From NCBI GenBank assembly GCA_964187785.1, contig OZ076418.1, positions 29,140,001 to 29,204,000 on the forward strand: 64,000 nt of DNA, read 5' to 3'. This stretch comes from Amphiscolops sp. MND2022 (Eukaryota). The notes below the pieces were generated by a model that was not told the origin of the DNA, made no database searches, and saw only the letters and a program-made list of their open reading frames with translations. This document shows positions 25,652 through 64,000 of the stretch, one piece after another (positions within the stretch are counted from its first letter, which is position 1; each line of letters opens with the position of its first letter). The translations under genes were made by a program, and so were the position numbers.

Positions 25652-25676
25652 TTCTTCTCTTCTTGATTGAACTCAG

Positions 25677-28843: not shown

Positions 28844-29208
28844 AAATATTTGAAACGGATGGAGATCGTGGAGATTTGGAAGAATTTGGGAAAAATGCAA
28901 CATAGATGATAAAATTTTCCTCTCCTACAGAAGAAACTGTGGGGCTGAAAAAAATTGCGATTGAGCCTTGCTTTTGAGCATGCCCTGTTGAAATTGTTTG
29001 ATTTTTTTTCATGTTTTTCTAAGTTTCCAAGCACATTCATAATAACTTTATGAAACTCTGACAAAAGTTTCCATGTAAAAAGAAGTAACTGTTCTATTTG
29101 GTTTTTAACAAGCAGCCAGAAAGATGCATTTAAATATTGAGAGGCATACGAAGCTATGAAATTTTGCACGATTTATAATGCCGAACTGCTGTTTTTGAAA
29201 TCGGCTCG

Positions 29209-37058: not shown

Positions 37059-37555
37059 AAAAGACAAAATCAAGAGACTCAAAGACTTTAACTAAACACA
37101 GTCTCTGTTTATCTTTTGCTCTCACATCTTTTCTCTTCATTTTTTCTTTCCCAATCAGTTACTTCAGTAACCCTTTTGAGAATTGATTTACTGGAATCAA
37201 CAAAACTAACTAAACCGAATCAGGTGTAATCAACCTGAAGCAAAGCAAACAAAGTATACAAAGAACAAAGCAACAAATAAATGGAATACAAGCAACACCG
37301 CAATCTATAGAAACAGTAACAACTTGACGTCTCTCATTTACCACCGGGAGATGGTCTCTTCTTTATAGAAAGCTTCTTCGCAGATTTAGTTTGGTCAGGG
37401 GGTAGAAACGGAACCTCGCTGACGAAGCGCGGAACAGCCAAAGTAGCAGTAGCCAATTGCAGAGTCTGATCGAAACCTCTTGATGACCCACCGGAAGGCC
37501 CAACCGGGATTGGCCCAGGAACAGCAAACTTCGAACTGGGTAGAGGAATTTTGGG

Positions 37556-43163: not shown

Positions 43164-44111
43164 ATGGGCAGCACACCTGTGAGAAGAAACAATAACACGA
43201 GGGACCCAATGTTAATTGACACTGCATTGGACCTAATAAATATCTCCAGTAGCTCTGAGGAAGGATTTACGGTGGAACGTTTCTCTTTGCCCGAACTAGA
43301 AGATATGTTCAGAGTTGCACCATCATCAATCACGAACATGCCAACTGCTTTCATGGGGTCGGCAGAGGCCTCATTATTCGTGACCAATTCAGTTGATGCC
43401 AGGTCAACAGGATGTATAGACACAAGAGGAACGTCTATTGAAACTGAGCTGATGGATCTATTGAACGACATACCGGATATTTCACCCACAACGTTCATCG
43501 ATACCTCCGACGAAGAAATGAACCCCTTCCCAGAGGCTAATTTCGCGAATGTACAAAGGAACGCGTATGGTCGCCCTACCCAGAGAGTGTGCCCTATGCC
43601 CAGACAGCAACAAGAGACACAACCTCCTAATGCGAATCTACCAACTATACCCAGCCGAACAAGCGCCTTTACAGCGTATACAGCACCACAGCAGAGAACA
43701 ACTGACCCGAATCCTCGTCCTACACAACAAGCACAGTATTTGCCGATGCCCATCCCGTTCTACCCTAATGCGTGGAACAATGTGGGATATGGGACATTGG
43801 GTCATAATATGCAACCACCACCATCAAGCAACGTTCCCGCTCATAACGGAACCTTGTTGCAAATGAACCCTCCAGTCATGCCCCAGGTCGCAGGTTATTG
43901 CCCAGGTTGCACTAAAACCTATGACCAAATCGCAGTAGAGACATTGACCAACTACGTTGCTTGGTCCGAGTATCCTGATGAAACAATCCGCGACAGAAAC
44001 GTCAGATCAAGGGCTTTTGTGGACGGATTTGGAGCTGCGTTAATCTGCTTCAAAAATGCTGGACTGTCGCCGGGCTTCCCCTGCGAGATGTCCGGAGTGC
44101 AGCATCGATGA
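43164..44111 (+). CDS. Gypsy accessory ORF3, unknown function (315 aa)
   Basis: Intact ATG-initiated ORF; acidic then Pro/Gln-rich body and a compact C-terminal region with CPGC; last 47 nt lie inside the 3-prime LTR. Confidence 0.7.
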   Translation: MGSTPVRRNNNTRDPMLIDTALDLINISSSSEEGFTVERFSLPELEDMFRVAPSSITNMPTAFMGSAEASLFVTNSVDARSTGCIDTRGTSIETELMDLLNDIPDISPTTFIDTSDEEMNPFPEANFANVQRNAYGRPTQRVCPMPRQQQETQPPNANLPTIPSRTSAFTAYTAPQQRTTDPNPRPTQQAQYLPMPIPFYPNAWNNVGYGTLGHNMQPPPSSNVPAHNGTLLQMNPPVMPQVAGYCPGCTKTYDQIAVETLTNYVAWSEYPDETIRDRNVRSRAFVDGFGAALICFKNAGLSPGFPCEMSGVQHR

Positions 44112-45823
44112 TCAGTTCAACTTGCTCCTTCCTACCGCCTGAGACCCGAAGATCCGAATCAAAGCGTCATCAGTGGTACAGACTTCAAAAACATTTAAAG
44201 TTACCATAAACTGAGATAATCGTTTTAAATGTTTGTTCTTGTTGCTAATTTCTTAGCATTCGTTTGTGTTATAGTGTTCGTTAATGTTAAATTGGATGCC
44301 CTGTTGCCTTCATTGATTTAATTGTAACAACGGTCTGACCGCTGGCAAATCGAAAGAAAAAGAAAAACTTTGACCAAATAAATTAGTCTCTAGTGATAAT
44401 GTTACTAGCTGACCCAAGCCAAAACTTTATTTTTACTCCCACTTTACCTTATAAGAGTGTACTGTAGTTTGATATAGCTTTCAAAATAATAGAGCATTTG
44501 TAGCAAGACTATGTAGGAAGCTTTCATAATTTGCATGATGAATTATCCATGAAACAGCATACTGTGCTCATACTTCTTTTCATTGAGAGTTTATACTGCT
44601 TTGTGCAGTTCTTACTAAGCCACATATGCGGCTTTAGCTAAAAAACAGTATGATGACTACATACGTGCGGATAGTTATGCTACTTACCGCATTATGCGGA
44701 AGTATTGTAAAAACATCATGATGATTACATCCGTGTGCACGTTTATACTCCTCACCGCATTATGCGGAAATATCTCAAAACAGCATGAAGTTTAATTCAT
44801 AATTAACATAATGAACAGCACCGATAAATTATACTGCATTATGCGGTTCCCATAAAACAGTATATATGCGGATATGCGGACAGAACGTCATAATCCGCAT
44901 ATTGCTTCTACAGTAATTTACTGATGTAGCAGTTCTATATTTAGACCTTCTAGGGATATGACGTTATGAAGTATTTTTAATCCCTGACCCTAGAAACATG
45001 ACGTTATGATGATTTGTATAAAATTGATTGTCATGCTACTAAAAATACCAACCAATAGAATCATTCGAAGCGAGTCCCTAAGAAATCATTTTCCCCACAT
45101 TCATTCGAAAAATCTCACACAGAACACAGTCACTTAATTTCACAATCTACCCACAGTTCTCAAACTTGGCAGTTTTCTTCCTTTGTGAAGATAACTTCCA
45201 CGATTTCATTTCACCACAATATCTTTGTAATTCAAAGATTTCTACACTCAACACTGTTTTCATCATGGGAAATAAAAGAAATAGACGTTCAAGAAGGATA
45301 GAATCTCAGTCATCGGACAGAGAAGAGAATACTTCAGAAACAAGCTTCACTCAAGGTAATGCGACTTTAGTTGATGTTTCTGAAAATGTTAATAACATTT
45401 TTGACAGGAACTTAGGTAGCGAACTGACAGAACCTTCGCAAATCAGCAATGAAATAGAAGTAATATCCCAGAGATTATTTGAACAGAACAGTAACAAGAT
45501 GACACAAATCGAACAGCAACTGAATAGTAAATTCGAATAGATACTTAGAGAAATTAGAACAAATAGAGAAAGCAATTTGGCAAATGATGAAGAGGATGCC
45601 GAGAACAACAGGCCAGGTCCATCTAACTCGAAAAATAGAAGTCTCAGTAACAATCACGCATCAAATACAACATTAGACAAAGACAAAAATCAGGATGATC
45701 GGTTTTATCCATCTGAAATGGGTGAATTAAGACAACCATACACGCCAGTCGGAACTGCTAATGAAACACTAGACGAAACCATCATTATAAACGAAAACAG
45801 ACAGGGGAATGCCGATCATCACA
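44065..45823 (+). repeat. Gypsy 3-prime LTR (1759 bp)
   Basis: Copy of 29209-30959; its gag fragment has a TAG at 45538-40. Confidence 0.95.
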
Positions 45824-46513
45824 GCTCGGTCCTAATCGCTTTTAATTCAATTCTAATGCTGAGCATCGCCGATCACCTCTTAAGATTCAAACAGGTGTCC
45901 AGCTTGACTACTAACTCTAAGTTGAGTGCTTTAGAAACTATAATGCGAAACAAAGCGTGAAAGTGATGAAAAGAAAGAACTAAAACGAAGTCGAATCGTT
46001 TCAATCTCGATTGAAATAGTACACGTTGCCTTGCGATCTTAAAAAATTGTTTTAAGCATATACTGGAGGTCTCCTTATTCAGCTATAAAGCTTTGGTTTA
46101 TATTTTAGCAAGAAAGTAGTATCAAACTTTCCATCACATTCAACTTAAGTACACAAAGTGATTACTGAGATTTCGGCGCAAAAGGCAATAATAAAGTTTC
46201 GTACTAAGTATGAACGTTGATGATAATCGCGTCATATTTTGCATTTCTGTGGTACCAAGAGATTCAAGTTGTCAAACTATGTAAAATTTTGTTTTGCCAC
46301 AATTGGGTAAAAATAGAATGAGGTCTTAGGAGAAGAATACATACGCAAATACAGCCAAGTCGTGCTTCGGCTATCTCAAAAACGATAAACTTCGGCTTCT
46401 ATTTTAATTGAAAAAAACTTGAAATTAATTTTAAAAAAATTGAAATAAACTTACCAATTACTGAAGGAAAAGAAATTTAAAAAAATAAAGAAAACTACAG
46501 TAAAAAGAGGTAA

Positions 46514-47308
46514 CTAAGGATCAAGCGTCCTCCAAAAATCTTGGTCGGTTTCACAGACTGATTCAATCAATGTCAGCGATTTCCTCAGGGTTTCCACGTT
46601 GAATCCTGTCCTGACGCACAAAAGTTTCGGATACCGCTGACAGAGACGATGAATCCGCATCAACTCTTTTATTTTTGTAACTCCATAATTAATGTGGAAC
46701 AAAGATAAATGCTCTTTTAATTTGACAGGCGATTTGGACTGCAGTTTCTCTGTTAGTGCCACAATTAATTTTCCTATAGCGCAGCTTTGAGCAATAAGCC
46801 CAAAGTCTGACGCTTCATGCAGTTTTTTAATTTTCTCACATAACAAATCCGCACTCCCGTCAACAGAGTTGTTATTAACCTCCTCGACAAACGCCATATC
46901 TTGAGGCGCTACACCGTCATTAACAGCGGAGTACATCTGTTTTTTGACGGAATCGTGCGACACAGGAGAACACTTCTTTCTATTTTTCGGAACTGGCTCC
47001 GGAACATTTTCCAACGATGAGGACGAGGAGGAAGACGATGAGGCGAAGGACGATGAGGCTGAAGACGAGCTGGACGCCGAAGACGGGGAAGGAGGACAGG
47101 ACTCGCTAAAAAATTTCTCCTGAACTTGCTCAAAAATGTACTCGCTCATTTCGTCCGTAAATTTTGTATTCGTCCTGTAACAAGTTCTCGACGCCAGCGA
47201 GAATCCGCACAAAAGGTGGGCAAACGTCTTTGTTTCCTTCTCAGTGAAGGAAACGCCGACCAACTGCTCCCTCAGGCTCTCGAAAGCCCGAACAACACAC
47301 TCCGGCAA
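46514..47308 (-). CDS. Polinton accessory protein, unknown (264 aa)
   Basis: Intact ORF, Ser-rich linker and helical C-terminal domain; co-oriented with the Polinton genes. Confidence 0.65.
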   Translation of the reverse strand: MPECVVRAFESLREQLVGVSFTEKETKTFAHLLCGFSLASRTCYRTNTKFTDEMSEYIFEQVQEKFFSESCPPSPSSASSSSSASSSFASSSSSSSSSLENVPEPVPKNRKKCSPVSHDSVKKQMYSAVNDGVAPQDMAFVEEVNNNSVDGSADLLCEKIKKLHEASDFGLIAQSCAIGKLIVALTEKLQSKSPVKLKEHLSLFHINYGVTKIKELMRIHRLCQRYPKLLCVRTGFNVETLRKSLTLIESVCETDQDFWRTLDP

Positions 47309-47427
47309 CTCCTGTTAACGAAAAAAATTGAACCATGGATAAAAAATTTATTGGATAATACCAAGCTGGGCAAACAAAATATCAGAAACATGAGAAGTAT
47401 AAATTGGAAATAAAATTACAAAACTTT

Positions 47428-47910
47428 TCAACAAAAATTATCGGATATAAAACGCAAGATATCTTGTTCCGTGGCATATGCTGGGTAATCCGACACAAGC
47501 AAATCTCGTTCCGAAAATCTTTTTTGTTTTGTTGAATAAAAAAAGTGAGCCATGAAAACACAGTATATCCCACAATTACCACTATCAATAGATTGCATAA
47601 ACACTTTGTTCGGAACATATTGATATAAGCATTGACCAGTGTGGATGGCATGTTTTTCTATTTTTGAGAAAATTTGAGGAAAAAAAGTCTCGAAATCTCT
47701 ACCAAAGCTATCATATAGGAGAATATTTTTGTTCTTCGAAGCAATCAAAAGCCAATGCTCTCCACTGCTTTCAGCGGGTAGGGTATTCACGATTACAAAC
47801 TGTCCGCTTTTAGGGGGAATAAATGTGTCTCTGGAGAAGCATCCCAAATATTTAAACTTCAACACGGGGTCTTTATTAACGAGTAGCGTAATTTGGAGAT
47901 TGTCAACCAT
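47428..47910 (-). CDS. Adenain-like maturation cysteine protease
   Basis: FKYLGCFSRD, IVNT...SSGEHWLL (His), YDSFG (Asp), QSIDSGNCGIYC (Gln/Cys); intact. Confidence 0.9.
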   Translation of the reverse strand: MVDNLQITLLVNKDPVLKFKYLGCFSRDTFIPPKSGQFVIVNTLPAESSGEHWLLIASKNKNILLYDSFGRDFETFFPQIFSKIEKHAIHTGQCLYQYVPNKVFMQSIDSGNCGIYCVFMAHFFYSTKQKRFSERDLLVSDYPAYATEQDILRFISDNFC

Positions 47911-49240
47911 TGTAAATGTTGGAGTTTTTTATCACTTCGCGGTTGCGATCAATCAAGACAACAGAACGTCTTTCACCCAAAAGTATCAATCGTATCGCTT
48001 TTGTAGTGGGCTCTTTAAACTTCAATTCCAAGCCCAACCGAGCAGCTGTAAGTTCGGGTCTGATTGTGTTGTCGTTAATGTGGTAATCAGCTGTTAGGCG
48101 AAAAACCAGACAGAAATGATTTTCGAAAGTGTCGAGAGTGATACCATTTCCACCGTGTTCGAAACCCAACGCTTTCAATGTGGTGTAATAAGCCCGAACC
48201 AGTGATGAATTCATGCTGAGAGGAGTTCCGCCCACAACATTTCCCTCACGATTGATTCTGACGGTGTCCAGTCCAAGACGCTGGAAATGAAACGGATTAG
48301 TCCTGTAACTTCCACTGAAACTGGTTTCGGGTATCATGAGTAAGACAAGACGGCTAATAGGAGCTCTATTGAAGATATCATCTTTGTAATAAAGTGTGAC
48401 TCCCTCCGCAAATAGAAAAGACTTAGTCACCACTTCTCTAAAATCGTATTGAGCAGCTTTTCTAGTAAGGGCACGTTCCAATCCAAGAAATGTTTCGTTT
48501 TTAAGTTCCTGCTTATGAGCAATCAAGGACGCGTTCAGTATTTGAATGGCGTATTTACCTTGTGAGTCTTCTGTCCCCACCGTATGAAGTAAAACAAATT
48601 GATCTGGCGAACGATAGAGGCGGATTCTAACATCGACGCCGGGAAGAATAAACTTATTGTTATCGGCCAAAAAACTATCAGATAATCTTCCGTAGTAACT
48701 CCATTGTTCAGTAAGTCCCACTCCAAGTTTCCGCCTATTGGAAAACGCCTCCCCCGAGCTGTCGGAAGGATCTTCTTCAATTTCATACCCTTGACATCGT
48801 AGCCAACCTTCTTTGCAGCTCTCGTTATGGGATAATTCCGCTTCTACCAACGCTCTGTAGGGATAGAGGTTATTCGACGATGAGACAGGGGTCCCATTGA
48901 GTGCTACTTCTACATTCTGGAAAATACTATGCATCAAGTTATTGACAAAGACTGGTTTTTTGCTCACATCGTCGTCGCTTTCAGTTTTTGAATTAGACAA
49001 GTGCTTCAATTTTACGTCCAGTTTCAAAAAGAGATTCACCAGATCAGTCACCGTTCCTCCAATGTCCGTTTTTGCGCCTGTGAACTCAAAATCCAGAACG
49101 GGTCCGTCGGCACTTGTTGGAGTGAAAACTTCTTCATTGTACCCTCGCTGGAAATCAACAAGTATTTCAGATGATCCAAAGAGCGACAAACCAGAATTTG
49201 TTCCTGGTTCGGGCGGTTCTGAGTAAATAAAGTCAGGCAT
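47903..49240 (-). CDS. Major capsid protein (double jelly-roll, Polinton type)
   Basis: About 445 aa intact ORF; FVNNLMHSIFQNVEVALNG, NLYPYRALVEAEL, QGY, NPFHFQ motifs; stop overlaps the protease ATG. Confidence 0.88.
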   Translation of the reverse strand: MPDFIYSEPPEPGTNSGLSLFGSSEILVDFQRGYNEEVFTPTSADGPVLDFEFTGAKTDIGGTVTDLVNLFLKLDVKLKHLSNSKTESDDDVSKKPVFVNNLMHSIFQNVEVALNGTPVSSSNNLYPYRALVEAELSHNESCKEGWLRCQGYEIEEDPSDSSGEAFSNRRKLGVGLTEQWSYYGRLSDSFLADNNKFILPGVDVRIRLYRSPDQFVLLHTVGTEDSQGKYAIQILNASLIAHKQELKNETFLGLERALTRKAAQYDFREVVTKSFLFAEGVTLYYKDDIFNRAPISRLVLLMIPETSFSGSYRTNPFHFQRLGLDTVRINREGNVVGGTPLSMNSSLVRAYYTTLKALGFEHGGNGITLDTFENHFCLVFRLTADYHINDNTIRPELTAARLGLELKFKEPTTKAIRLILLGERRSVVLIDRNREVIKNSNIYNG

Positions 49241-49358
49241 CACAAACAAAATAAATAAATAAAAAAGCTACAAAAGGCACACTGAACTATTCTGAGGAAA
49301 ATATAACTAACGTAACTCTAGAGGACACTGCTCTGAAGACGTTTTGACTAAACGCGAT

Positions 49359-49908
49359 CTACAATAGATGCAAAGAAATCTTGGCGGGATCGTTTTTTCT
49401 TGTTTGACTTTTTACGGCACTACTCGGCTTAAACGTTTTTCGTTGACTTGGAGTTTTCTTCATTCTCGCAACTGTTTTTCTCGATCGATTTTTCTTGAAT
49501 GATTTTTTACGTTTTGATTTCGACTTTCGCACTTTTCTGACACCAATCGATTTATTTTTCTTTCGGGAGGCCACTCTCCCTTTTTTTCCAATTTCGAAAC
49601 GTTTCAGACCTCCTCCAACTTGCTGTCTGATTGTTTTTTTAGGTGCATTCTTCACTGCGGCTTTTGGCTTCGAAGTGCCATCTAAGACATTGATGACTTC
49701 CGGCGCAGCTGCTCGAAGAAATTATTTTTTCAGCGGGAATTCCATATCTTCTCATCATCGGAATAACAAACCCTCGGAAGCCCATTTTTATGGCAGTTGG
49801 TAAGCCGCTACCATACTGCCGCGACGGTGATCCTTGAAAATAATTTAGACCAGACAAGTGCGGCTTTATGTGATTAGAATTTACAGATGAGCTAGGGAAG
49901 GATGACAT
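49359..49908 (-). pseudogene. Small basic core/DNA-condensing-like protein, frameshifted
   Basis: RQYGSGL...FRGFVIPMMRR followed, after a shift at an A-run (~49730), by QVGGGL and a very Lys/Arg-rich tail. Confidence 0.65.
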
Positions 49909-50020
49909 CCCGCCTGGTTAAAGACAAAAATCGACAGCTGAAAACAAGAGCAACTTATCGCAAATAGAATGATAAAAAAAATGAAATTTAACAAAAGTAT
50001 GAAAAGATTTGAGAAACTAT

Positions 50021-50851
50021 CTAATCAGTTTTTTTGAAAACAAGATTGAGAGTTGTTCGACCAACACCAACAAAAGGTATTAAATCCCCGGTTTCAGTGC
50101 GCAGTTCTACGAGCATGTCAATGAGGTTCTTCTTGGAAACATTTTTGAAAGTAGGATTGGGAAAGGACATAAACGAGCAGGCACCATAGCCGAAAGAGCC
50201 TCCGGGTTTCTCCTCCTCCTCCTTCGGCGGCATCTGTTGAGGGTTGAATAAAGGGAATGTATTGAGAAGTGGAGCACGGCTGTTGCCGACGAACTGCTGC
50301 TCTAAAAAATCTCCATACACGTAAACTTGATGCCAATGATGAATGTCTACGGGAAAAAAGGACGGCATGTTATGGTAATCCGGTGCATGTTTCCACGGGG
50401 ATTTCACCCGCTAACAACCGAGAATGTGGAAAAGATCGGGTGACATATCAGCAAACCTGACAGTTTCTGGATAGTTCAAAACAAACTTGCCCTCAAGATC
50501 GATCAGCCAACTGAAATATTTTTTCAAAGCCTCTTTGTTCCATACTCCTCGTGCACGGTGAATGCTTCTATGTATCTCTTCAACTACCTGTTCCAAGTCT
50601 GTATAAACACCTTTTCCAAATTTGCAATTCTTTATCCATTTTTTTCCACCCACGTGGTAATAAAAGTCAAATGTCGACTCTCTAATATTGTAAATCTTCC
50701 GGGGATATGTAATCTCAGTTAATCCGACTTGCCACCTTCTCTCTAGTTCAATTGTTGTTGGTAAACAGGTCCTGAAAGACGCCAAGGTATTGGAGGGGTA
50801 CACGTCTGAAGACGCGTTAGATGAAAGGGTAATGGTGAAATGCTCCGTCAT
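50021..50851 (-). pseudogene. Minor capsid (penton-like) protein, frameshifted
   Basis: MTEHFTITLSSNASSDVYPSNTLASFRTCLP...WQVGLTEITYP at the N-terminus; VYVYGDFLEQQFVGNSRAPLL...ELRTETGDLIPF...TTLNLVFKK at the C-terminus in another frame. Confidence 0.82.
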
Positions 50852-50978
50852 TAATATGCTGGCGAGCAAGCAATCATTTGTGCGACAGATTTCGGGTTCA
50901 GTTGTGAACACAATTATGCAACTAACTCGATAATGTGTGATTAGAATGTGATAAAAATTTTTAAAATATCTGGATCGC

Positions 50979-51988
50979 CTAGAATAAAATTCGCTGATGA
51001 CGCGACCGACTCCGATCAGACAAGTAATTGTAATGAGTAATTTCTTCAGAATAAAATCGACCCAGAATTGGCTCGCCTTTCGAATCTCGTAGTTTGTAGG
51101 TAATTGGTTCGTGCGGTGGATTGCTGACTTGACTGACTCGAAAAACTTCTGAGGTGTATTGCTGTTTGTATCCCTTACGGAACGCCATGTCTTTGAACGC
51201 GATTCTAACCGTGTCTCCCACTTTGAAAACAAGAACTTTTCGACGTCTGTGATATTTCTTGTTTGCTTTCCGGTGTTCATCTTGCTGCTTGCGCAAGAGT
51301 ATTGGAACATGCGTCGCGTCAACATCGTTAGGAGACATACAAATGGACCGGTTGAAACGTTTGTTCATCAGGCTGACGAAATTTTTCAGGTTGTTTATGT
51401 AACGAAATGTTCTAAATTCTTCAAAAAATTTATAGATGAGGGTTTTAATCGAACGTATATACCTTTCAGCCATTGAACTTTTTGTCTCACTATGAGTGCT
51501 ATATATTTCAATTTCATTGTCATCAAAGAACTTTTTGAAGCTACCTTTAAATTCCTTTCTAAGATCGACCCAGACTTTGATCGGGAAGTCAAGGTGTTCA
51601 AAATTAACCATTTTTTGAACGCTCTACAAGTCTCTTCAGAAGTTTTTGACTTCATGGCTTCGACTCGTGTCTTTCGGGAAAGAGTGTCAACTGCAACTAG
51701 CAGATACTTGTAGCCATTGTTGTGCTCCGCAAGTTTCTCCATGAACGCAACGTCAATAGACCAAATATGGTTTATTCCAAGGCTTCTAACAGACAACCGC
51801 CTGAATTTCCTTCTAACTGGTTTGAACTTTGTGTAGGTAGATGATGTATGTAGAAAAGCTTTGACTTTGGCCAACGACAACCCACTAGCTTTTTTTAGAC
51901 TCTTGACACTTCCAAACGCCGCGAGATGTTTTGTTGAAGTGTATATACCATGCAGTAGGCGGAATTCAGACTCTGTCAGCTTTCTCAT
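50979..51988 (-). pseudogene. Retroviral-type (rve) integrase of the Polinton, frameshifted
   Basis: IWSIDVAFM...YLLVAVDTLSR (D1), VWVDLRKEF (D2), SMAERYIRSIK (E), GDTVRI, GRFYSEE; split between ORFs 51395-51988 and 50979-51611. Confidence 0.92.
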
Positions 51989-52012
51989 GGTCTTGGAAGT
52001 GCTAACCGACGC

Positions 52013-52666
52013 TCAATGCATAATAGCAGCCATATTTTTACCAGAAACATTTTTGCTAAAAATATAGCTCAACGAATTCCTATTAAGGATTGGCTTTGAG
52101 GCTCTATCGAAACTCGCAGGGTCAGACGCAGGGAAAAGGACATCCAACGCGAGAAGGTAACTATCTGGAATTTTTTTCTGATAGAGTTGCATGTCTTTCA
52201 AAAATTTTATGATTTTAATACTGGAATGGGGTTGGAAGGCTGGCTTATTGCCTCTGCCAATGTTGAAGGTTTTTGTAGAGAAATTGAACGTTATGTCATT
52301 TGAGGATGAGAGGAGGTCGATAAGTCCCGTTATTCGGTCTTTCCGTCGGGAATTAGATAAGTAAGAATCTTCATTATCTTTCGAATTTTGGGTGGAATCT
52401 GTCACATTAGACACTTCTTTCAACCATTCTTTTTGATGTCCTTGAACAGTGTCACCTGGTGTTGCTACGGGGTCGTTTTTCGCGGGGGCAAACTGTACCG
52501 GCTCTGTTGATGGTTGCGATAAGCGTATATCGGGCAATTTCTCCTCTGCGTCGTGTTCGTCCGATCCATTATTAGTAGAGCCCACAGAAGAACAAAAATC
52601 GACAATTTTATTATACAGTGGTAATGGTATCAGAACAAACTCCTGTTGCTCCAATTGCGCTTGCAT
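52013..52666 (-). CDS. Polinton protein of unknown function upstream of integrase (217 aa)
   Basis: Intact ORF between ATPase and integrase, starting with EFVLIPLPLY. Confidence 0.6.
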   Translation of the reverse strand: MQAQLEQQEFVLIPLPLYNKIVDFCSSVGSTNNGSDEHDAEEKLPDIRLSQPSTEPVQFAPAKNDPVATPGDTVQGHQKEWLKEVSNVTDSTQNSKDNEDSYLSNSRRKDRITGLIDLLSSSNDITFNFSTKTFNIGRGNKPAFQPHSSIKIIKFLKDMQLYQKKIPDSYLLALDVLFPASDPASFDRASKPILNRNSLSYIFSKNVSGKNMAAIMH

Positions 52667-52683
52667 ATCTCGACTGTTGTTTT

Positions 52684-53780
52684 TCAGGAAGACTCCAATT
52701 GATCCACTGTGTGGGTCAAGGTACTATCGATTCGACGCATTTCGTCAAAATGCTGTGACAAAACAAGATGAATTTTGCAATCTCCATTGTTGAATGGACC
52801 TGGAACTGCTGATCTTTTCAGAACTGGTTGATCATCTGCACTATAGAGGTACTGATTCTGGATGTCATACGGCACAAAATAAACAGCAGATTGATGTTGA
52901 CTACTGGCCAAAGAAGTAGCTAGTTCGTTTGTGGATTGTTTCCTGTTTCGCATGGGAGTTTGGCCAGACTGTGACTCACTGTTTTCGAATTTTGAGAATA
53001 CAAAGTCTCGACAAAAAACCGACTGATCAAATGAGTTAGTTGAGAAGCGGAGAGCATCAGTGCAATTTGTTGTGAGGTCAATCAACAAATGTCCGAAGGG
53101 TCTTACAGTAGCTTTCCGATAAACATCCAATAGAAAAGTAGGCCCGCCGTACTCAATCTCAGAACCGAGAATTTTCAGTTGTTTGCCGATTCTGGGAGTT
53201 TTCAAAATAACGAAAGGTGTAGTGTTTTTATCAATAGTCACACAGTATTTACCCTGTTGATAAAGGTTATGTTTGACAAAAATCACACTCACACCGCGAT
53301 GACGACCGGCTGTTGCTAGGTTTGAAAAATGGAAGCTTTGAATTAATTCTTCGCAACTGTCGTCAAAAATTGCTAAAACTTTATCGTTCTCAACACTGGT
53401 TCGAAACCCAGATTCTTCTTTTTGGTGATTCAACAGATTGTTTAATGCCTCTTTAATTTCAGTGGAGGTTTGATTGGCTTTAGAAGTTTTCAGGCGTTTC
53501 ACTGGAACATCTGGGGTCTTGTTGACTCCATCACTGCGTTGGTTGGACGCAGCAAGTAGTTGACGAAAAAACAGCTTTGCTTCGATTTTTTGCAGAAAAC
53601 TATCATATATAGGCTGCCAATGACGATAAAAGTAAACAATTTTTTAAATGGAGGACTGAAAATGCCGCCAGTGGTAGAAGGTTTTGTGAGAAAGTTCAAA
53701 ATATGGTTTGTCTTGCCCGACTCTGACCCACCACATACGCTCATAAAAACTCTTCTGTCGGTAGGAATGACCTTGTGCAT
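52684..53780 (-). pseudogene. A32/FtsK-like genome-packaging ATPase, frameshifted
   Basis: Walker A GGSESGKT, Walker B LAIFDDS, GRHRGVSVIFVKHNLY; frame change at ~53570. Confidence 0.92.
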
Positions 53781-53785
53781 ATCAA

Positions 53786-54499
53786 TCACACAGTCGGTAA
53801 AATATATGTCAAGCAGAGAGAGATGATCATGAAGTTCGCAGTGTGATCTTCGCAAGAAGGGTTCTTTATGAAAAGTACCCTCAGCGCTGCAAACAAAACC
53901 AAAACAACGACAAAAAAGATTTGACAAAGGAATACAAATCTTTTCTTTGATAAAAAAAATCCACAGCAATGCCAATCGTTGTCTTCAGAATCTCGCTTCA
54001 ATTCAATTTGAAAGTGATATCGCGACTGAGTCCCTGGAAACACACTGTCAACTTGGTCACACGCTATGCTTTTTCCGGGATCTCCTCCAGCCTCGTCTTT
54101 TGGTGGAGGATCCTTCGTGTAGGATGGTGGCGGAATAAGGTAACCTAACGTCGAGCTAAGTATTGAAAGATACAAGGCTGTTTCGTCACAACTCAGGGAC
54201 GCTCGATATTAGATTAGCGTTAGCTTTAAGAGACAACAAATATCCAAAACGGAGATAACAAAGAGTTGTGTCAAATAAAAAATTTGCTCATGTGGTAACC
54301 TGTTGATACTTCTTGTGGTTGATTGGAGTCCAATTTTTTCTGTCTTGAGTGAATTCGAGCAGCTTGTGTTTTCTCTCCTACCGGTTAAATCTCCACATTC
54401 CTCTGCCGACTGTACTTCCAGAGGAAAAGGTTCCAGATTATGGCTTGGTTCGTTAAGGCTGCTGAATGTCACTTCTACAGGGGTTTCAATTATACTCAT
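53786..54499 (-). pseudogene. Small membrane protein with two tandem hydrophobic-hairpin modules, in-frame stop
   Basis: ORFs 54209-54499 and 53786-54175 are in frame, separated by a TAA at 54209-11; modules end LSSTLGYLIPPP and ISLCLTYILPTV. Confidence 0.6.
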
Positions 54500-54679
54500 C
54501 TGAAAACGTTAAACTATTACTACATCTGTGGAAAACAAAAACTAGAAAAAAACCTAAAAAGGAGATCACAGTTTAATCAAAAACTTGTGGATAAAAATTT
54601 CTTGACACAATCACATATGCTAGAAACAAGACGCTAAATCTAAAACAAACATGCACGCTTTTTATTGAGTCAGCAGTTG

Positions 54680-55768
54680 TTACTCAGTTAAAGACGACAC
54701 ATCATCTGTTTCTACGTTCTCGGTCGAAACACTGGAGTGTTGGTCTCGATCGTTAAGTTGATCCATACTCGAGGCATATGGTGGAGGAGGTGTACTTGCT
54801 CTAAAATGACTCGTCTGTTGATCCATTCCTGTTTCCTCTTCGACCTGATGGGTGCCATAGCTATTGTTATCACTCATATCCGAGTTGGTATGGTTCGAAT
54901 AGTTTTCACTATAAGACGCCAATGTTTGAGTTTGACCGTTTGGATAGGGATAGTTGTGTTCATGAGAGTGAGTGGGCATTGTGGTCTGGTATGACGAAAC
55001 GTTTTGATGACGGATATGCTGATAATGATGATTGTTGTACTGCTGTACAGAGTACCGAGGGGTCAAGTTGGAATAAGAACCGTTGGTTTGAACATTGATT
55101 CGCGGGAAAGAAGGTTGCGTCGGCAAGATTTGATAAAAGTGACCATTCGAAGAGTTGATACCCGGTATAAAAGCGTTTAAATTGTTCGAATTCACAAAGC
55201 TTCCAATTCGGTTTTCACTTTGCGGGTTGTTTGTTCTCAAGGATCCTTCCCACGTTCGTCTGACTGAACTTCGAAAAGCAACTATGCTGTGGGCCAACTG
55301 TTTGCTGGCGACTAGAGAGGTGAACTCAGCCCAAGTAAGACTGAAAACTTGCTGGAAACTTTCGGGAGCCCCGTTGGAAGTCGCTGGCGCTGGATTCTCA
55401 TTGTTGGCTAAACGGTTGGATGATCGTGAGAGAATAACGGTCGGAAGAGAACAATCGCTATAAGTTTCAGTTGGAGCAGCAGTGGGGGGTCCCACATTCA
55501 AAGAATCGTCGAATTGGAAATTCAAATGAAGAGTATCTGACAAAGGTACGAGGCCCATCATTTCTTCAAGTTGTATCGCTCCAACTTGAGGCGAGTTTCG
55601 TTTCAATCGCTCTGAAAGCAAAGTAATGACGTAACTTAAAAACGAGGAAAAACAGGCAACCAGTAACATGACCAATCCCAAGAAAATTGGGGATAAGGTA
55701 AATACGGAATGCGTAAAAGTACCCTGGACCAACTTTGAAATCTCGGTAGAGAAACCCGTAAGCGTCAT
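54680..55768 (-). CDS. Putative single-pass membrane protein with a disordered tail and PPPY motif
   Basis: ATG at ~55768 (MTLTGFS...); hydrophobic IFLGLVMLLVACFSSFLSYVITLL; Ser/Asn/Gln-rich tail; STPPPPYASS. Confidence 0.6.
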   Translation of the reverse strand: MTLTGFSTEISKLVQGTFTHSVFTLSPIFLGLVMLLVACFSSFLSYVITLLSERLKRNSPQVGAIQLEEMMGLVPLSDTLHLNFQFDDSLNVGPPTAAPTETYSDCSLPTVILSRSSNRLANNENPAPATSNGAPESFQQVFSLTWAEFTSLVASKQLAHSIVAFRSSVRRTWEGSLRTNNPQSENRIGSFVNSNNLNAFIPGINSSNGHFYQILPTQPSFPRINVQTNGSYSNLTPRYSVQQYNNHHYQHIRHQNVSSYQTTMPTHSHEHNYPYPNGQTQTLASYSENYSNHTNSDMSDNNSYGTHQVEEETGMDQQTSHFRASTPPPPYASSMDQLNDRDQHSSVSTENVETDDVSSLTE

Positions 55769-56511
55769 GGAAGCAAGCGTGTAGTTTGAGAATAGGAAAA
55801 ACTCTACCCAGGCACTGATGCAACAAAACTTTTTCCAGGGCCTATGAGACCACCGTAGCTCGCTCTGAAAGAATAAAGGTTCGCATTGACCATCAAATCT
55901 TCCCTGCAGTGCTGACAAACCGAATGGCAACTGCAATCACGTGTTTCAACGAGACAGACGCTCAAGAAAACTAAGTGATTAAAAATATATTTTTCTGTCA
56001 CTTCTGGAGACAGGAACAATTTCAACTGCTTGCAGTCGCGATTGAGATTTTTCCTACTCTCTAAATACCACTCGTGCCAAATGGGGGCTACGCGGAAGAT
56101 CAAAAAAACTTTGTCATGCGATAAACTGTTTTTCATCTCGACAAAAAGAATAATGAGCAGCAAGGTGAAAAAAACTGCCATACATGGACAGAGAGCCACA
56201 TACATAAAAAAGTTACTGATTCAAAAGATGTATAAATTACATAACTAACTATAAACATAACAAACGGAGTTTACAATACTGCACTGACTGAATAGATCTT
56301 GACAAAAACACTAAATTTTTGAGATACGATGTAATTGCATGGTGGAACACAAAGAAGATGTGACCTTCCGTCAAACTTTTTTAACATGAGGAATGACAAC
56401 CAACTCCCACTGTTTTCTGGCTTTCACTTTGGGAGAGCGTTTAGGAAACAGAATTTTGTTGCACAGTTTCTCATTGCTTTCATAGGCACTCTCGAAGCTT
56501 TCTTTGAAGAT

Positions 56512-57215
56512 TCAGCCTTGAACTCTAGCGAAGTCCTGGTCACGAAAACTGGCCCAAATGGAAAAAGGACACCACACATTCCTTTGATGCACATGATAAC
56601 CACACTGGCCGAATTTATGGAGAAACTCATTTAGGAAAAAAACTTTCACCATCTTGACATTTTCCTCGAATCGCCAGTTCGTTGCTGATTCGCCGGTGAA
56701 CGAGGTTCCACAGCAAGTATCATTTTCAGTTAGTTTTGTGCACTTGCTAGAACTGATCGCGAAGCCACCACTACTTCCAGCATCCTTATGGTCTTCTGCA
56801 CTGGAAGCGAATTTGGATATTTTTCTCGGTGATGGGGTGAAATCATCGGCGTCAACTGATGGCAGAACTGAATTTGATGGGCAATAAATAAGGATATGGA
56901 GGTGGTTATCTATTGTAGAACGGTCGTATGGCTCGGGCAGGATCAAACATCTTCCGTTCGGGTACTTCCAGGTACGTTTTTTTTTGATGTCAGGTCAGCG
57001 ATACAGCCCAGACTGTTTTCTTTAAACCCACATTGTTTGTAACAGTGCGTCAGATGAGCCCCAATGACGTGATCCACGCCAGCTTCTTCCAGCAGTTCCC
57101 CAAGTCGGTCACGTACAAAATAAACTTGTTCAATGGCGTCTCTTTCTGTCGCCAAATCCGGGTAGAAACAAAAATGCGAGAAGCCTGTAGTACAGCGAAG
57201 CCTGAATTCCATCTC
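56512..57215 (-). CDS. Polinton accessory ORF(s), unknown, probably one frameshifted gene
   Basis: Overlapping ORFs 56943-57290 and 56512-56946 abut at ~56945, directly downstream of PolB. Confidence 0.35.
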
Positions 57216-57293
57216 TAACGCCGGCGACACAAATTGTTCCAAACACTCTGAAACGCAAGAAAAGTAAAACACAAATATTTTTCGGATCAACTC

Positions 57294-60200
57294 TCAAAGA
57301 TTTGAAAAAGGAAAACGATGGACTTTGAAAGCATTTGTTGGTAATGAGGAAACATGTGAAAAAACTAGGTAAATACTAAAATAGGCAGAGTCATAAAAAC
57401 CGAAAGGGAACGAACATCCAGTGATACGGCTGAACACTCTTTTGCTACTAGTTACTCTTGAGCGTTTCTCACAATGTTGTGTTTCAAGCTTCCCTGTGCG
57501 TACACATCGCTTGAGAGACGAGAAAGGACTCCTGATTTCATGCGTTTCTCCAAGCACTAGCTTTTTGAATGCATCAGGGTTGAATGTCTTCTCCGTTGCT
57601 CTGTTGAGAGTAACACCTTTCACCTTGAACATGTTGATTCGAGCCCAGTATCTGTATTCGTACCGGAGAGACAGTAAAATTTCGGTCCTGCACTCCAGAA
57701 TTTGTCGATAGTTATGTTTTCTCCCAGTTCATCTGTCATCTCGCCAAGAAAAGTCCCAGTCTCAATTTCACGTTGTTGGTTTTTGTCGGAGTTCTCCGTA
57801 TACATGATGCTGTCGGTGTCACAATAGATAATTCTTCGGGGTTCTCGTACATTCTCCATATTTTCATACAACACAACACGAGCGTGGGCTGTAGTGAAGG
57901 CTGCTAAAATCACGTTTGTTTTCCTTGATTGATCAGCTGCGTCATCTATCAATTGATACTGAAGCAGCATGAGGTCATCGTCGACTAAGGTTGCGTCAGT
58001 AACACGCTTGGTTTCCGATGTGAAGTATTCAACTACTTCAGAATATTTGTTCACATATTTCGTCTTCGGCATATTTTCACGCATTCCCAAGTAACCCCAA
58101 AAACTATTCAACAAAATTTTAGCAATGAATCGCAGACCTTCATTTCTCGCAATCTTTTGAGGCTCGAGGCGAATTCCTTCTTTCTTTTCAAAGTTTTCTA
58201 GGTAGGAGATACGATGTACACAAAGCTGGTCACTTTTGCTGCATGAAGGAGCATCGTCCGCAGAAAAGCAAGAACATTTCGTTGGCCAACCCGAAGCTTC
58301 CGCCTTGATTTTCAGAAATTTATCGATGTAGTCTTTAAACAGCTGTGACGAACGTTTTTCTCGGCTCCAGCTCCATAGCTTGGACACTTCCAGAACACGA
58401 TAACCCTTTTCTACGGCCAATTTTAGCTCACATGAAACAAAAGTTCCCCAGATTGTCCGCTCAGCAACACCGATGTGAGAACAGCGAGTAGATGTTAATT
58501 CAAGACTCCTCGGGTTTCTCTCAGAAGTCCTATTCTCAACACACGCTCGACACAGTGGGAAAAACAGTTTGGATTGGAATTTGTAAGGTAACACTGGAAG
58601 CAGCAGGTCAGCAGGTGCTAAGACATTGCATTTAACCAATCCGAAGGTTTCATCTAAGATTCGACTCTCGAACTGTGTCAGAGGTATCTGCGAGAGAACT
58701 TTTCTCTGAAACTTTTCAAGACCAGAGAAAGATGTTTCGATGATATCATTGGATGTCTTCAGCATATTTGAATGAGCCTCTTCCAAAACCTTGTCAGTAA
58801 TGTTATTGAGTCCCAGAAACATAGACTCGTTTTCATTACCAGGCAAAGGGTTGCCGTCAGACTGCTTCTTGTTGTCACTTGAAGCGTCAAAATTGAATGC
58901 TTTCGACACACTGATAACATCGGGATGGCCCAGGGATATAAAGATCGAGAGTTCACGAAAAGATAGAGTGAGCAGACGTCCACGTAACGAAAGGTTTCTC
59001 CCTTTGATGTTTTAGACCACCAAGACTTGAAGTTCTCAGTCCTTCCTCCGACGAAGGAATCTCGTGCTTGCAAAGGGTAGTAATTCTTGCTGCTCCCCAC
59101 AACTATTTTGAGCAGATCTATGTTACTATCATCGAAGAGGTCCAATCCTCGGAATGGTGTGTTGGCTGCATCTTCGGTTGAAAATCGATGTGGTGATTTT
59201 GTATTCTCCCCGTTCAACAAATCATTGAATTCACACTCCCAGAAGTAGTAAAGGTGCAATTACCTGAACCGGCGTCCATCCGAAGTAGTGAAGATTCGTC
59301 TAGAATTAATTTGAACTTGAAACCAATTCACTCGGTCAACCACAGTTTGCGTAAACAAATCGCCCATTGTTATCCCGTTTAGTTTACAATTTTTTTCTAA
59401 TCTGTCAGGGTAGCAAGAAGGACATTCATGAAAGAAGCAACCAAAAAACTCGAAAACATACGCTGAGGTAATATCCAACTTGGAACAACCTCTTTCTTCC
59501 ATCAACATTAGCCCCGTCAACTTTGAACTGGCCCAGCTTTTGTTCTTTTCCTATCGCAGACCGTGAGCCATTTCCGGATCGATAAAGCCTTACTGTATGA
59601 TTGCTGGAGCTCTTTCTCGCGACTAGCTCGACCCATTTCAGCCATTGAGAAACAGGGAATGACGTTTTCTCTCTGCCCGAGTACCCGGTAACTGGAATGA
59701 TAGCTATCGAGTCCTCAGGCATGAACAATTGACGGTAGATAAAGTTGCAAGCAGAAGCAGCAGTGCACGCTACTTGGAACGGGTCAATGTCGCTGCAAAT
59801 TTCCATCATTAGTCTGCGATACTCTAGGAAACCATTCTTCAGAAGTTTCACGTCCATTTTCACGTCAGAATCACAATACTCGACTAGTTCTTTTTTAAAG
59901 TCGTACACAAGAGAGTTTTCAAAAAACCATTTGCTTTGCTCATGATGCCACGAGAGGAACTTTTCGACATCAATAGACTTTTTCATGGAGTTAACACCAA
60001 ACAAGCAAGGCGGGGGAAACTGACCAGCAAGGAAAGCAAATGATGTAGTTAGCTTTGGCTCGTTGCTATTGTTGGTGGTGGAATTCAAGACATTTCTGCA
60101 GTGGAAACAGTCTTTTGCTATTGTTTGTCGTAATCTGCAGTTCAAACCTTTGGAACAGGTCAAAAAACTGTGCATGGGCGAGCATTCTGTATTTGCGTCA

Positions 60201-62259
60201 TAACTTAAAGCCTCTTTAGAAGTAAGAAAATGAGGAAAGTATCCTTTCCGTTGTTCGGTTAAGACGAAAATTTTCGCGAAGCTGGATAAAGGAATATGAA
60301 TGAAAAGATATGAGTCAATGAACCTTTTGTTCCCAACTTTCATTGAGACCACTTTGTTACCCCTCAACAAAATTTTTGGGATGAACTTGTGTTGCTGATA
60401 AAGCCACTCCAATATCGGTAAAAAGTCGAAGCCACTACCAAAGTGAGCAACAAACCACTCCTCTTTACGGACTCTAGAGCTGTCGTTGAAAATCTTGTCA
60501 CAAAAGTTTTGGATACAGTCGTACCCCAAATGAACTTCCTGTTGACCTGTCAGCGATTCGGCATCTGGTAGTAAGGGTTTGTGACCACCTTCATTATTAC
60601 AACTTTGATTTGTCTCTATGTCAAAAACCCATACACACTCATCCGGTACTTTTGGTTGTTCGAGGTTTGGACCGTTCAAGTTGAAGCTTTCTGACACTTT
60701 GCGACGTTTGCTGTGCTGTGGTTCGTGTTGTTTAGAACTTTCCGTTACAGACTGCGATCGAGTTCCGTTCAACGAATAGCTGTCACAATCGTCAAAAATT
60801 CTTCATCCTCAACTGTTTGCGGTATTGTTGTAGATTTTTCCTCACTGGAAGAATTAACTTTTTCTCGCTTTCTATTTGGCCTCTGCACAAAACACTGATG
60901 CCGTGTCGACTGGTTCCTCGACGCCTCATGTTCGATTTCATAGTACGATGAGCACACAGTGCAACGTCTTCTCAAACACAAATGATTTGACATAGCGCGC
61001 TTCGCTACTGTTGAGTTACAAACCGGACAAATTGTGTACAGATGACAAACACCCGATTTCATATGACAATCCAAGCACTTCTGAGATCTCAAAGTGAGAT
61101 TACATACATCACAGGAGACCAATAATGTTCGATGTGATGAAAAACTTTCCGATTGATGCAGAGAAAAATCTTGCGGCGTAAAGTTTATAAAACCAGTTCT
61201 GTTGAGGCATCCTGGTTGACGGCACAGCATACATCCGCTAGCTGAACAAAGATGCTTGACTTAAGAAAGAGCTTTGTGACAGCTGTAACAAAAATGACGA
61301 GCATCGAACAGAGCTTTCATTGATGTCACTAGGTCCACATGGCCTCTCTCACTATCGTACAACAAATCAATGTGCTTCTCACTTTGAGAGTTGTAGCTCT
61401 TAAGAAAAGTCCCCAGGAAGTTTCTGTCATACACTGACAAGCAAAATTGTTCGAGTGCTTTGCTCTTACAGAGTTCTTCCAAATCCGCCAAGGTAGAGCG
61501 TCGTTTGGCGGAGAAACCACAACTATTTGCCGACTGATGATTGTTGACGAGTTCCAATACAGTCGAAGAATTGTGTAAGTACTCATCAGCTCGTAGTTCC
61601 TCGATAAAATTCGCCATTTCACTCCTCTGATACGAGGCCTTGTAAAAATTAGTATTCTTCTTGACTTTACCTTCTTTTTTTGCATGAAGCACTCGACCCA
61701 ACGCTAATGCTTTCAGTAGGCAGTCGTTTTCGTCATATGCAACGTGGATAGTAATAATAGACCTTTTTTGCTTTGTAAAGCACTGGAAATCTGGCACGAC
61801 ACGGTTGTGGATACCACCAATTCTTTTGCCACCAATAGAAGGCAAAGACACACTGAGTACATTAACTTTAATGTTGTTGCTAATGTCGAAGGACTCGTTC
61901 GAGTTCACAACCCGATCAATTTCGTTGAGAACGATGTCAACATCGAACAATTCGGAAGGAGAAAAGGGAATGTGGATGGGATAATTGAGGCTAGGAGCAT
62001 TCAGAACCATCCGGATTCTGTGTGAATAACCCGGCAAATCGTTGTTTATTTCTTCCACCAATTGTTTGATGAGATGGTTGAAAATTTCGCGAAGTTTATC
62101 TATAACTGATTCAATGTCTGTAAAGTAAACTTCGTAATCACGACTTGTGGCTCGCAATAAACTTCGTTTCTGGGGCATTCGATTGAAAGAGTAGTAACGC
62201 GATGGGTCAAAATTTGTTGATGGCCCTGGGCTGGAAGGTTCGCTTGAGTTGTCTGCCAT
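57294..62259 (-). pseudogene. polB: Protein-primed family B DNA polymerase (pPolB) with N-terminal extension
   Basis: Exo I VFDIET, Exo II AHFGSGFDF, RFIDSY, KGYFPH, Exo III YCDSDV, GGRTE, YVDVCSLY, KILLNSFWG, YCDTDSI, KVKGVTLN. Broken by in-frame TAA at 61261 and 59260 and by four frameshifts (~60790, ~59500, ~58930, ~57635). Confidence 0.95.
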
Positions 62260-62565
62260 TACTGGACAGTGAAAAACACGAAAAATGATGAGTTTGTGAC
62301 AAGAATACCAGCTGTATTGCGCACAACTAAAAAGTCTTACTCAGTTAAGGTGGTTAACCAAAGTGAAACAAATGATAAGAAGTAGTCAACTAAACTTTCA
62401 CAGATAAATAGATACAAAACATCCGAGGAGTCAAACTGCCTAGAGCCAAAACGAATAATACTGCACTGGACATAGAAAGTATTAAGGGAGTGAAACACAA
62501 CAGACAGTTAGAAGACATGAACGTTAACATACAAAGCGTCTTGGACATTTCAACATTTTAATGGT

Positions 62566-63249
62566 TCACGCAGCTTCGTCAGAGTCACAAAGCACTTCCA
62601 TTGCACATTTTTGAGCTTGTGTGTCAACTTTGTCTAGCATTTGTGACTCTTCGTCACAATAATTATCTTCCTGCACAGTCATTTTCCCTTTCTTGCAGGC
62701 AGACCCCTGATGACCAGCAGATGAAATCTTAGCAGATGAACTATCAGGAATTGAGGGTGGCGATGAAGTGCCCGTTACCAGCTGCATCAACCTGCGATTG
62801 AAGTCACCCGTCTGGGAGGAAGACGATTTAAGATCTTTCGACGTTGCACCAATGCCGAAAAGTTCGCCCAGCTTAGACAATTCGTCCAGGGTCAGCGATA
62901 CATGCCCCTGCTTAACCCAACCATCGTCACTTGGGCTTCCATCGGAATCCATGCTCTTCGGACCCACCGGACCAAAACGAGCCGGTTGTGACATCACAGG
63001 CTTGAAAAGTCGGATACTTACGTACGCGGCATTGTTCGGTTCATAAACTTTCAACCCGACACGAACCCATCTACTGTGGCTGCGGCTTATGTCCCAGTGC
63101 GCGTCGAGATTCTGGGCATCCATCGATGGTGTTACTTTCCATGGAGACACCGAGTTGCTGGGCTGTTTGTTGAACGGGTCACCGCCGCTTCCAGTCTTGG
63201 CAGCCTTCTTCTTGTTACGCACAGAACTCATCCAATGATTTTGATTCAT
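62566..63249 (-). CDS. PC4-like ssDNA-binding protein (putative)
   Basis: RWVRVGLKVY...YVSIRLFK...GHVSLTLDELSKL parallels the PC4 pattern (RYVSVRDF..LIDIREYW..KGISLNPEQWSQL). Confidence 0.55.
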   Translation of the reverse strand: MNQNHWMSSVRNKKKAAKTGSGGDPFNKQPSNSVSPWKVTPSMDAQNLDAHWDISRSHSRWVRVGLKVYEPNNAAYVSIRLFKPVMSQPARFGPVGPKSMDSDGSPSDDGWVKQGHVSLTLDELSKLGELFGIGATSKDLKSSSSQTGDFNRRLMQLVTGTSSPPSIPDSSSAKISSAGHQGSACKKGKMTVQEDNYCDEESQMLDKVDTQAQKCAMEVLCDSDEAA

Positions 63250-63599
63250 GCTGGAAAAAAGACGTAAAAGGTTGGAGACAGCCATTACCGAATAAAAGGT
63301 CTTCAAATAGTAACTTCCTTACTTTCAAGTTTTGATGAATTGGGTGGGAAGAAATGTGACGCGTGGTTCAGAAGCGAATCAATCGGAAGAAACAGCAGAT
63401 CACAGAATAATCTGAAAAGGATCCAAATGTTATGGACTGAAACACAAAGAGTTCGCTTCAAATAAAGAAATGTCAAAAAGTACTGACGAGAAAAAAATTC
63501 CAGGGTACAAGTGAACTTCTACAAAATATAGTAAGTAAAACAAAAACAAATAAAGTCATATACGCACAACACACAAAAACACACACATATGCTATACAG

Positions 63600-63966
63600 G
63601 AACCACCATGTACTTTGCGTTTAAATACTCAGCTGCTTTCATACAGTCACAAGCTTCCTCATCTCTTCCTTGATGGAGCAGTACTGCGGCCATGAGGCGA
63701 TACGCTTGCTCCAACAATTAAATAATGGAGAATTGCAGAAATTGAGGCACGGCGCGGAACTTGACCTCTTCCATCAACTTCAACAGAATGTCTCTGTTTT
63801 TCAGAGCAACAGACAGTGCTTTCTCCGGTTCAAGAAATTTTCTGATGGACCATGAATCCAAAGAGGACTGTACAGTCTGCAACTTCGTCATCAAGCAGTC
63901 ATCAATGGAAATATATTGCTGCATTGTGAACAACAAAATGTCTGAAATTACATCATGGTTAAACAT
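63600..63966 (-). CDS. Unknown Polinton-associated ORF, possibly frameshifted
   Basis: 82-aa ORF 63718-63966 with a plausible continuation in another frame (LLEQAYRLMAAVLLHQGRDEE...). Confidence 0.3.
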
Positions 63967-64000
63967 TTAGCCGTTATTACTTCTAAGCAAACATCGACAT

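Follow-up and report, generated by a model that had tools for sequence, protein, structure and literature searches.

A probably dead Polinton/Maverick copy of the adintovirus type, most likely in an acoel genome, and its sister copies

Introduction

The right-hand part of the 64,000-nucleotide stretch of DNA analysed here (the window) carries a block of virus-like genes, which a first-pass annotation had described as a near-complete Polinton/adintovirus-like genome. Does this block represent an element that could still copy itself, or the remains of one? Our results indicate that positions 46514-63285 are very probably a dead, integrated Polinton/Maverick copy of the adintovirus type in an animal genome, most likely that of an acoel. 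The class is well known and the present copy is a fossil, and the finding alone is ordinary.

Gene content and capsid fold

Every long open reading frame (ORF) between 46514 and 63285 lay on the minus strand in the ORF listing, in agreement with the co-oriented block reported at first. The gene order from the right was the 62566-63285 ORF, the polymerase, four accessory ORFs, the packaging ATPase, a 217-aa ORF, the integrase, a putative penton protein, a core-type protein, the major capsid protein (MCP), the protease and a 211-aa ORF. At least 17.5 kb of the element is seen in the window (the Polinton range is 13-25 kb). The hallmark genes were as follows.

57294..62259, minus strand: protein-primed DNA polymerase B, with a terminal-protein and vOTU-like start, a Cys-rich region, an exonuclease, a VSR-like insert and a palm
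52684..53780, minus strand: A32/FtsK-type packaging ATPase, Walker A motif in the upstream piece, frame change near 53640
50979..51988, minus strand: retrovirus-type integrase, frame change near 51600
50021..50851, minus strand: putative penton (minor capsid protein), named from its position, in-frame stop at 50411-50413
49359..49908, minus strand: basic core-type protein with Gly-rich motifs, frame change near 49720
47903..49240, minus strand: MCP, double jelly-roll by predicted fold, 445 aa, unbroken
47428..47910, minus strand: maturation cysteine protease (adenain/Ulp1 type) by Pfam, unbroken

By its predicted structure, the product of 47903-49240 is a double jelly-roll capsid protein. The model reached a mean pLDDT of 72.5 with an alignment of 29 sequences and 29.7 without an alignment. 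Among solved structures it matched the Sputnik MCP (E 9.9e-16) and also the iridovirus and PBCV-1 capsids, and among predicted structures it matched adomavirus, adintovirus, virophage and MELD models. Ranks 1-16 of the fold search were held by viral capsid or scaffold proteins only; the PBCV-1 capsid gave a Z of 25.5 (rmsd 3.3, 338 aligned), and the first unrelated fold had a Z of 6.6. The first-pass annotation had staked its interpretation on this fold, and three structure searches bore it out. The MCP profile drew 9,698 proteins at E<=0.001, and chance-level matches only when run against the sequences of solved structures.

The protease matched Peptidase_C5 (E 1.3e-8, above the Pfam cut-off) and Peptidase_C48 (3.4e-4). 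Two pieces of the polymerase matched DNA_pol_B_2 (PF03175) at E 1.5e-12 and 7e-9, both above the cut-off, and the gene was colinear with five natural relatives of 1,539-1,658 aa over about 62210-57390. The integrase matched rve at E 3.7e-6, which falls under the Pfam cut-off because the gene is split, and the IS481 model at E 1.2e-6. The ATPase matched Pox_A32 at E 6.2e-4, again under the cut-off. Among the hallmark modules listed in the first pass, the polymerase, integrase, protease and ATPase are supported by Pfam (weakly for the ATPase) and the MCP by its predicted fold, whereas the penton and core proteins were named from position and motifs only. The putative penton, whose motifs we presume to be diagnostic, had no match in Pfam, PHROGs or NCBIfam; the core protein, whose Gly-rich motifs we take to be protease sites, had no match in the profile libraries.

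The OTU-like region of the window polymerase was assigned from a Cys and His pattern that we assume to be typical, and the OTU-type Cys pattern was present in 6 of the 17 relatives listed. Exonuclease motif II read AHF in the window and in every one of the nine clade members showing the pattern; of 120 hits, 72 had N and 11 had F at the motif residue, and 29 lacked a match. The substitution of Phe for the usual Asn, in piece 59426-60802 and in relatives P0286-P0296, might alter proofreading. No Chromo match to the integrase was obtained in Pfam, and nothing chromo-like was present in three frames. Only 127 nt separated the integrase stop from the penton ATG, and the absence of the chromodomain may be a deletion in this copy.

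Reading-frame breaks

Fourteen breaks, nine of them frame changes and five in-frame stops, were counted in 15.0 kb of coding DNA (0.93 per kb). Eight of the 14 genes were broken and six were whole, a point absent from the first-pass annotation. Six breaks fell in the polymerase, with frame changes near 60796, 59515, 58927 and 57636 and in-frame stops at 61261 and 59260. The count was compiled from the polymerase alignment, the sister proteins and three-frame listings; a doubtful 82-aa ORF was kept outside the 14 genes. Introns were rejected as an explanation of the frame changes, as the sister proteins cross those positions without loss of length. Because of the 14 breaks, this copy would be unable to replicate or integrate alone. 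The description as near-complete holds for gene content, but not for the ends, neither of which was seen, nor for autonomous function.

Element boundaries

The repeat common to host DNA ends at 28895, and the left end of the element should therefore lie within about 1 kb of the sequence joined across a Gypsy insertion. This empty-site join, proposed in the first pass, was confirmed by the Gypsy long terminal repeats (LTRs, 29209-30959 and 44065-45823) and a 5-bp duplication, GCTCG. Within the window no inverted repeat touched 45829-46513; the partner arm would lie beyond 64000, so loss of the terminal inverted repeats is not implied. In Polintons these repeats measure 100-1500 bp, and the target-site duplication 5-8 bp. 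One candidate terminus was considered.

46115..46120, plus strand: AGTAGT, the only copy in the 1 kb expected to hold the left terminus

AGTAGT is presumably the Polinton terminal motif, but it is expected by chance in 1 kb, and it was rejected as the left end.

Sister copies

Exact matches for 8 of 10 window ORFs were found in the protein collection on one 407-kb contig, and members of the sister clusters on 11 other contigs of 22-850 kb, distinguished by their lengths. The sister proteins were mostly 90-99% identical, read through the breaks of the window copy and ended elsewhere; full-length MCP sisters were 95.7-98.9% identical. No whole polymerase was present among the sisters listed: their longest pieces are 889 and 642 aa, and polymerases of related subfamilies reach 1,539-1,658 aa. 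From one polymerase cluster, five short members without a match to the window were dropped. Among relatives 701-2000 aa long of the polymerase catalytic piece, the best identity was 63%. No sister DNA was found in viral contigs (two weak 22% matches were not used) or in prokaryote genomes, and one metagenome-contig locus was discarded as a fungal-looking false match.

Positions varying among the sister MCPs were as frequent in the conserved third (16/147) as in the variable third (15/148, p 0.85), and the differences look neutral at the protein level. The between-subfamily controls leaned to variable positions (19/109 vs 31/109, p 0.076; 13/96 vs 24/99, p 0.068). The simplest reading is one insertion burst followed by neutral decay.

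Whole polymerases do occur in the related subfamilies, and three lie on contigs of 17-21 kb that are equal in size to MCP-bearing contigs. These equal-sized contigs (P0287/P0048 of 20,652 bases, P0294/P0117 of 17,258 and P0296/P0123 of 17,628) are each about as long as a whole element, and may represent either free genomes or collapsed repeats.

Lineage and relatives

Trees were built by FastTree only. In the tree of 169 MCPs, the window fell in a 54-row clade with support 100. Names were looked up for 20 clusters, and the named rows in this clade were six Convolutriloba macropyga gene models only, the nearest at about 52% identity. In the tree of 69 polymerase pieces, the window fell in a 17-row clade with support 100, separate from the rows of insects, corals, echinoderms and chordates. 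The Convolutriloba macropyga 'F54H12.2-like' models (XP_075255191.1 and others) share the MCP clade (a 30-row group, support 100), but belong to a different subfamily; they are annotated as uncharacterised host proteins and are not described as elements in the papers found.

The element shares with Polintons/Mavericks and Alpha-polymerase adintoviruses (PMC8502044) a PF03175-type polymerase with a putative OTU-like N-terminal region, an rve integrase, a packaging ATPase, an adenain-type protease, a double jelly-roll capsid and small membrane-type accessory genes. Unlike these, the window copy is broken, its genes all run one way, and no integrase chromodomain was seen; a C-terminal chromodomain on the integrase is part of the adintovirus definition of Buck et al. 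and was not found here. The polymerase clade of the window also differs from most relatives in the Phe of exonuclease motif II, and its accessory genes are without a library match.

Mavericks make up 4.5% of the Praesagittifera naikaiensis genome (PMC6451197). The supplement of PMC10748475 holds 28 integrase-linked xenacoelomorph polymerase rows, which amount to 14 loci, as two accessions have identical coordinates; the Polinton definition used here was taken from its preprint (10.1101/2023.08.22.554363). Adintovirus nemertoderma6405 is listed in the supplement of PMC11071296, and a terminal protein and a vOTU are described in PMC11161782. The published xenacoelomorph Polintons are of the same class as the window element and probably come from the same phylum. 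The polymerases listed for them are 959-1,251 aa long, against 1,539-1,658 aa in whole members of the window clade. A literature search, which did not extend to subscription journals, returned no description of the window clade, of acoel Polintons beyond these listings, or of spliced-leader use by Polintons, and the portion of the PMC8502044 supplement covered contained no acoel or PC4 term. The first-pass suggestion that the lineage may be uncharacterised was correct in that the named members of the clade are only automatic Convolutriloba macropyga models, but xenacoelomorph Polintons already stand in published tables.

Alternative explanations

It is very unlikely that the block is an intact, active provirus whose breaks are long-read assembly errors. 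Six of the nine frame changes lay at runs of at least five identical bases compared with a background of 22%, a bias that both read errors and slippage would produce; the MCP and the protease are whole, and the contigs come from assemblies with possibly low host coverage. The five in-frame stops, however, are substitutions, and the sister MCP proteins differ by 1-4% with conserved positions not spared. Moreover, the two LTR pairs in the window showed 21 mismatches and one 8-nt gap, with no single-base gap in 3,068 columns; small indels are therefore not abundant in the assembly. Very unlikely too is a non-autonomous or domesticated form, with selection keeping the capsid and protease while the replication genes decay. 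The MCP and protease have no break compared with six in the polymerase, and a full-length MCP was present on six of nine MCP-cluster contigs. Yet with 0.93 breaks per kb these two genes together would escape with a probability of 0.18, the penton, core and ATPase genes are broken, three of nine sister MCPs are split, and the MCP differences look neutral.

That the host is some other animal, or a symbiont from the same sample, we regard as unlikely. The window is without a host gene, but all named members seen in the 54-row MCP clade were Convolutriloba macropyga (six proteins), and the window agrees with published acoel genomes in its low GC and its density of LTR elements. Several points count against a dead acoel Polinton, beside the homopolymer bias of the frame changes. 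No terminus, target-site duplication or right host flank was seen; the listing covered 15 of the 20 members of one polymerase cluster; and the acoel host is inferred from relatives only. As to neutrality, the between-subfamily controls were only marginal (p 0.07), and the polymerase piece leaned to constraint (7/116 vs 14/115, p 0.115). On balance, we favour the dead integrated copy.

Accessory genes

Where the first pass had counted at least six accessory ORFs, seven were found, together with one that is doubtful.

46514..47314, minus strand: unbroken 211-aa ORF (ATG 47149, frame open from 47314) with a Ser-rich start
52013..52666, minus strand: unbroken 217-aa ORF in an 8-member cluster of sister copies
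53786..54499, minus strand: membrane protein in which a hydrophobic two-helix unit occurs twice in tandem, with a PPxY-like motif; stop in frame at 54209-54211
54680..55768, minus strand: unbroken low-complexity ORF of 293-362 aa by start, PPxY motif at its end, AATAAA at 54666
55590..56205, minus strand: ORF of about 206 aa, hydrophobic at both ends, with three sisters of 206 aa, frame change near 55828
56374..57212, minus strand: ORF of about 285 aa rich in Cys and His, without a family, frame change near 56980, in-frame stop at 56512-56514
62566..63285, minus strand: unbroken accessory ORF of about 239 aa (227-246) in a 13-member cluster
63718..63966, minus strand: doubtful 82-aa ORF, cluster of 1, only on the window's own contig

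For the 62566-63285 product, residues 45-170 gave a predicted homodimer with a score of 0.56 compared with 0.01 for the best of three controls; the runs agreed in at least 52% of contacts, with pLDDT of at least 62. The mark for this score was reached by 21/30 solved microbial homodimers, 7/16 animal homodimers and 0/23 monomers, and a score could reflect memory of a solved relative. In the predicted dimer, strands 64-93 and 127-129 contact the partner segment 131-143, so that the strands of one copy pack on the C-terminal helix of the other, an arrangement that, together with the residue pattern, we take to be that of the PC4/Sub1 single-stranded DNA (ssDNA)-binding dimers. Library searches gave no PC4 profile match, and the family likeness is without profile or structure-search support. 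The model would be compatible with an ssDNA-binding role beside a strand-displacing polymerase.

A sister protein of the 55590-56205 product shows GPG and HD-x-Y motifs between hydrophobic segments, which we assume to correspond to the calcium-loop and catalytic motifs of parvovirus-type phospholipase A2. No library match was obtained for this ORF, three of its sisters drew no Pfam family at E<=10, and no homologue of the phospholipase-like sister protein was present among 66 candidates of 113-361 aa. Two accessory proteins had no usable match in Atlas. The 52013-52666 product, presumably comparable to the conserved Polinton PZ protein, had no match in the profile libraries. The 46514-47314 ORF gave low-complexity Pfam matches only, and after its Ser-rich start the product probably forms a helical domain. 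An HUH nuclease, suggested for 56374-57212 by an HLHILI motif, was without search support and was dropped. Phospholipase-like and other membrane-active genes have been described in adintoviruses (Starrett et al. 2021, PMC8502044), and such accessory genes are therefore expected here; gene-map figures in published supplements may show the same ones.

Possible expression by splicing

All nine spacers were T-rich on the sense strand (skew 0.13-0.44), whereas six coding stretches were not, and acceptor-like sites (a pyrimidine tract followed by YAG) stood just before several starts. Under relaxed settings, with two of the starts re-chosen, 8 of 14 starts had an acceptor, against a composition-matched mean of 1.95 (P 0.0002). 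With fixed starts and 15 settings, between 1 and 6 of 13 starts had one (P 0.0045-0.51), and 9 of the 15 settings gave P below 0.05; internal ATGs had 0-1 of 26. The settings were picked after the sequence had been seen, and under strict settings the enrichment vanished (1-2 of 13 starts, P 0.25-0.51). Acceptor-site density was similar in host DNA on the minus strand of 1-20000 (1.5 vs 1.65 per kb), and a fixed-spacing pattern of acceptor plus ATG matched none of the element's starts. A GTAAG donor upstream of the acceptor was seen in two genes only, and none was clear for the others.

62262..62340, minus strand: intron-like unit of 79 nt with a GTAAG donor, a T-rich tract and CAG, ending 3 nt before the polymerase ATG
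63251..63322, minus strand: similar intron-like unit of 72 nt with a GTAAG donor

An acceptor-like site also lies at 47312, and the 46514-47314 ORF may be a second exon. Further candidate splice positions are 57248, 54500 and 49914. AATAAA follows the stops of the MCP, the protease and the 54680 ORF (47877, 47352 and 54666, minus strand); in 18 kb, there were 8 such signals on the sense strand and 24 on the other. In the acoel Symsagittifera roscoffensis, 30.2% of genes are subject to spliced-leader trans-splicing (PMC9911081), and the supplement of that paper contained no Maverick term.

Neighbouring repeats

Several other repeats lie to the left of the element.

29209..45823, plus strand: Gypsy-type LTR retrotransposon, outside the element, LTRs 98.8% identical, 5-bp duplication GCTCG

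The Gypsy element is unusually long (16.6 kb), with gag and pol present and the integrase region interrupted by a stop at about 35629. It also holds antisense ORFs at 37556-38584 and 40207-41616 and a sense ORF at 43164-44111, none with a Pfam match, and a 39-bp tandem array near 39073-39384. Its right LTR contains, at 45082-45960, one open frame of 152 aa and another of 139 aa; the latter extends past the LTR into the flank. A BEL/Pao-type LTR element (DUF1759, DUF5641) occupies 20045-27429, with LTRs 99.4% identical over 1,309 bp and an internal region of about 4.8 kb; its ORFs gave no reverse transcriptase match, and it is probably an internally deleted copy. Two adjacent MITE-like palindromic units with arms of 65 nt and 41 nt lie at 28391-28641. 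A tRNA-like stretch near 28780-28845, uncalled by ARAGORN, is followed by a repeat common to 2209-2253; no tRNA genes were found in the window. A 17-bp tandem array of about 12 copies lies at 2005-2211.

Discussion

As judged from the family to which the element belongs, its active parent would have copied itself by protein priming, with the OTU-like domain of the polymerase releasing the terminal protein, and would have integrated by its rve integrase. Its DNA could have been loaded by the A32-type ATPase into a double jelly-roll capsid, which the protease would have matured. A single subfamily may then have reached at least 12 contigs in a burst, after which the copies would have decayed independently.

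A broader proposal, which we put forward only tentatively and as less likely than not to hold in full, is that of an acoel-associated Polinton clade whose one-way genes might be expressed on a few long transcripts cut by splicing, either spliced-leader trans-splicing at acceptors before the ATGs or, for the two rightmost genes, short 5' introns. These elements would carry a PC4-like ssDNA-binding protein, a membrane-anchored phospholipase-like protein and PPxY membrane proteins, and those related subfamilies whose polymerases are whole may still be able to form particles.

The value of the window copy is as an entry point to an undescribed clade with several subfamilies and with accessory genes that have no library match. 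Should the acceptor pattern hold, it would reveal the means by which Polinton genes arrayed in one direction are expressed in a group of hosts that use spliced-leader trans-splicing.

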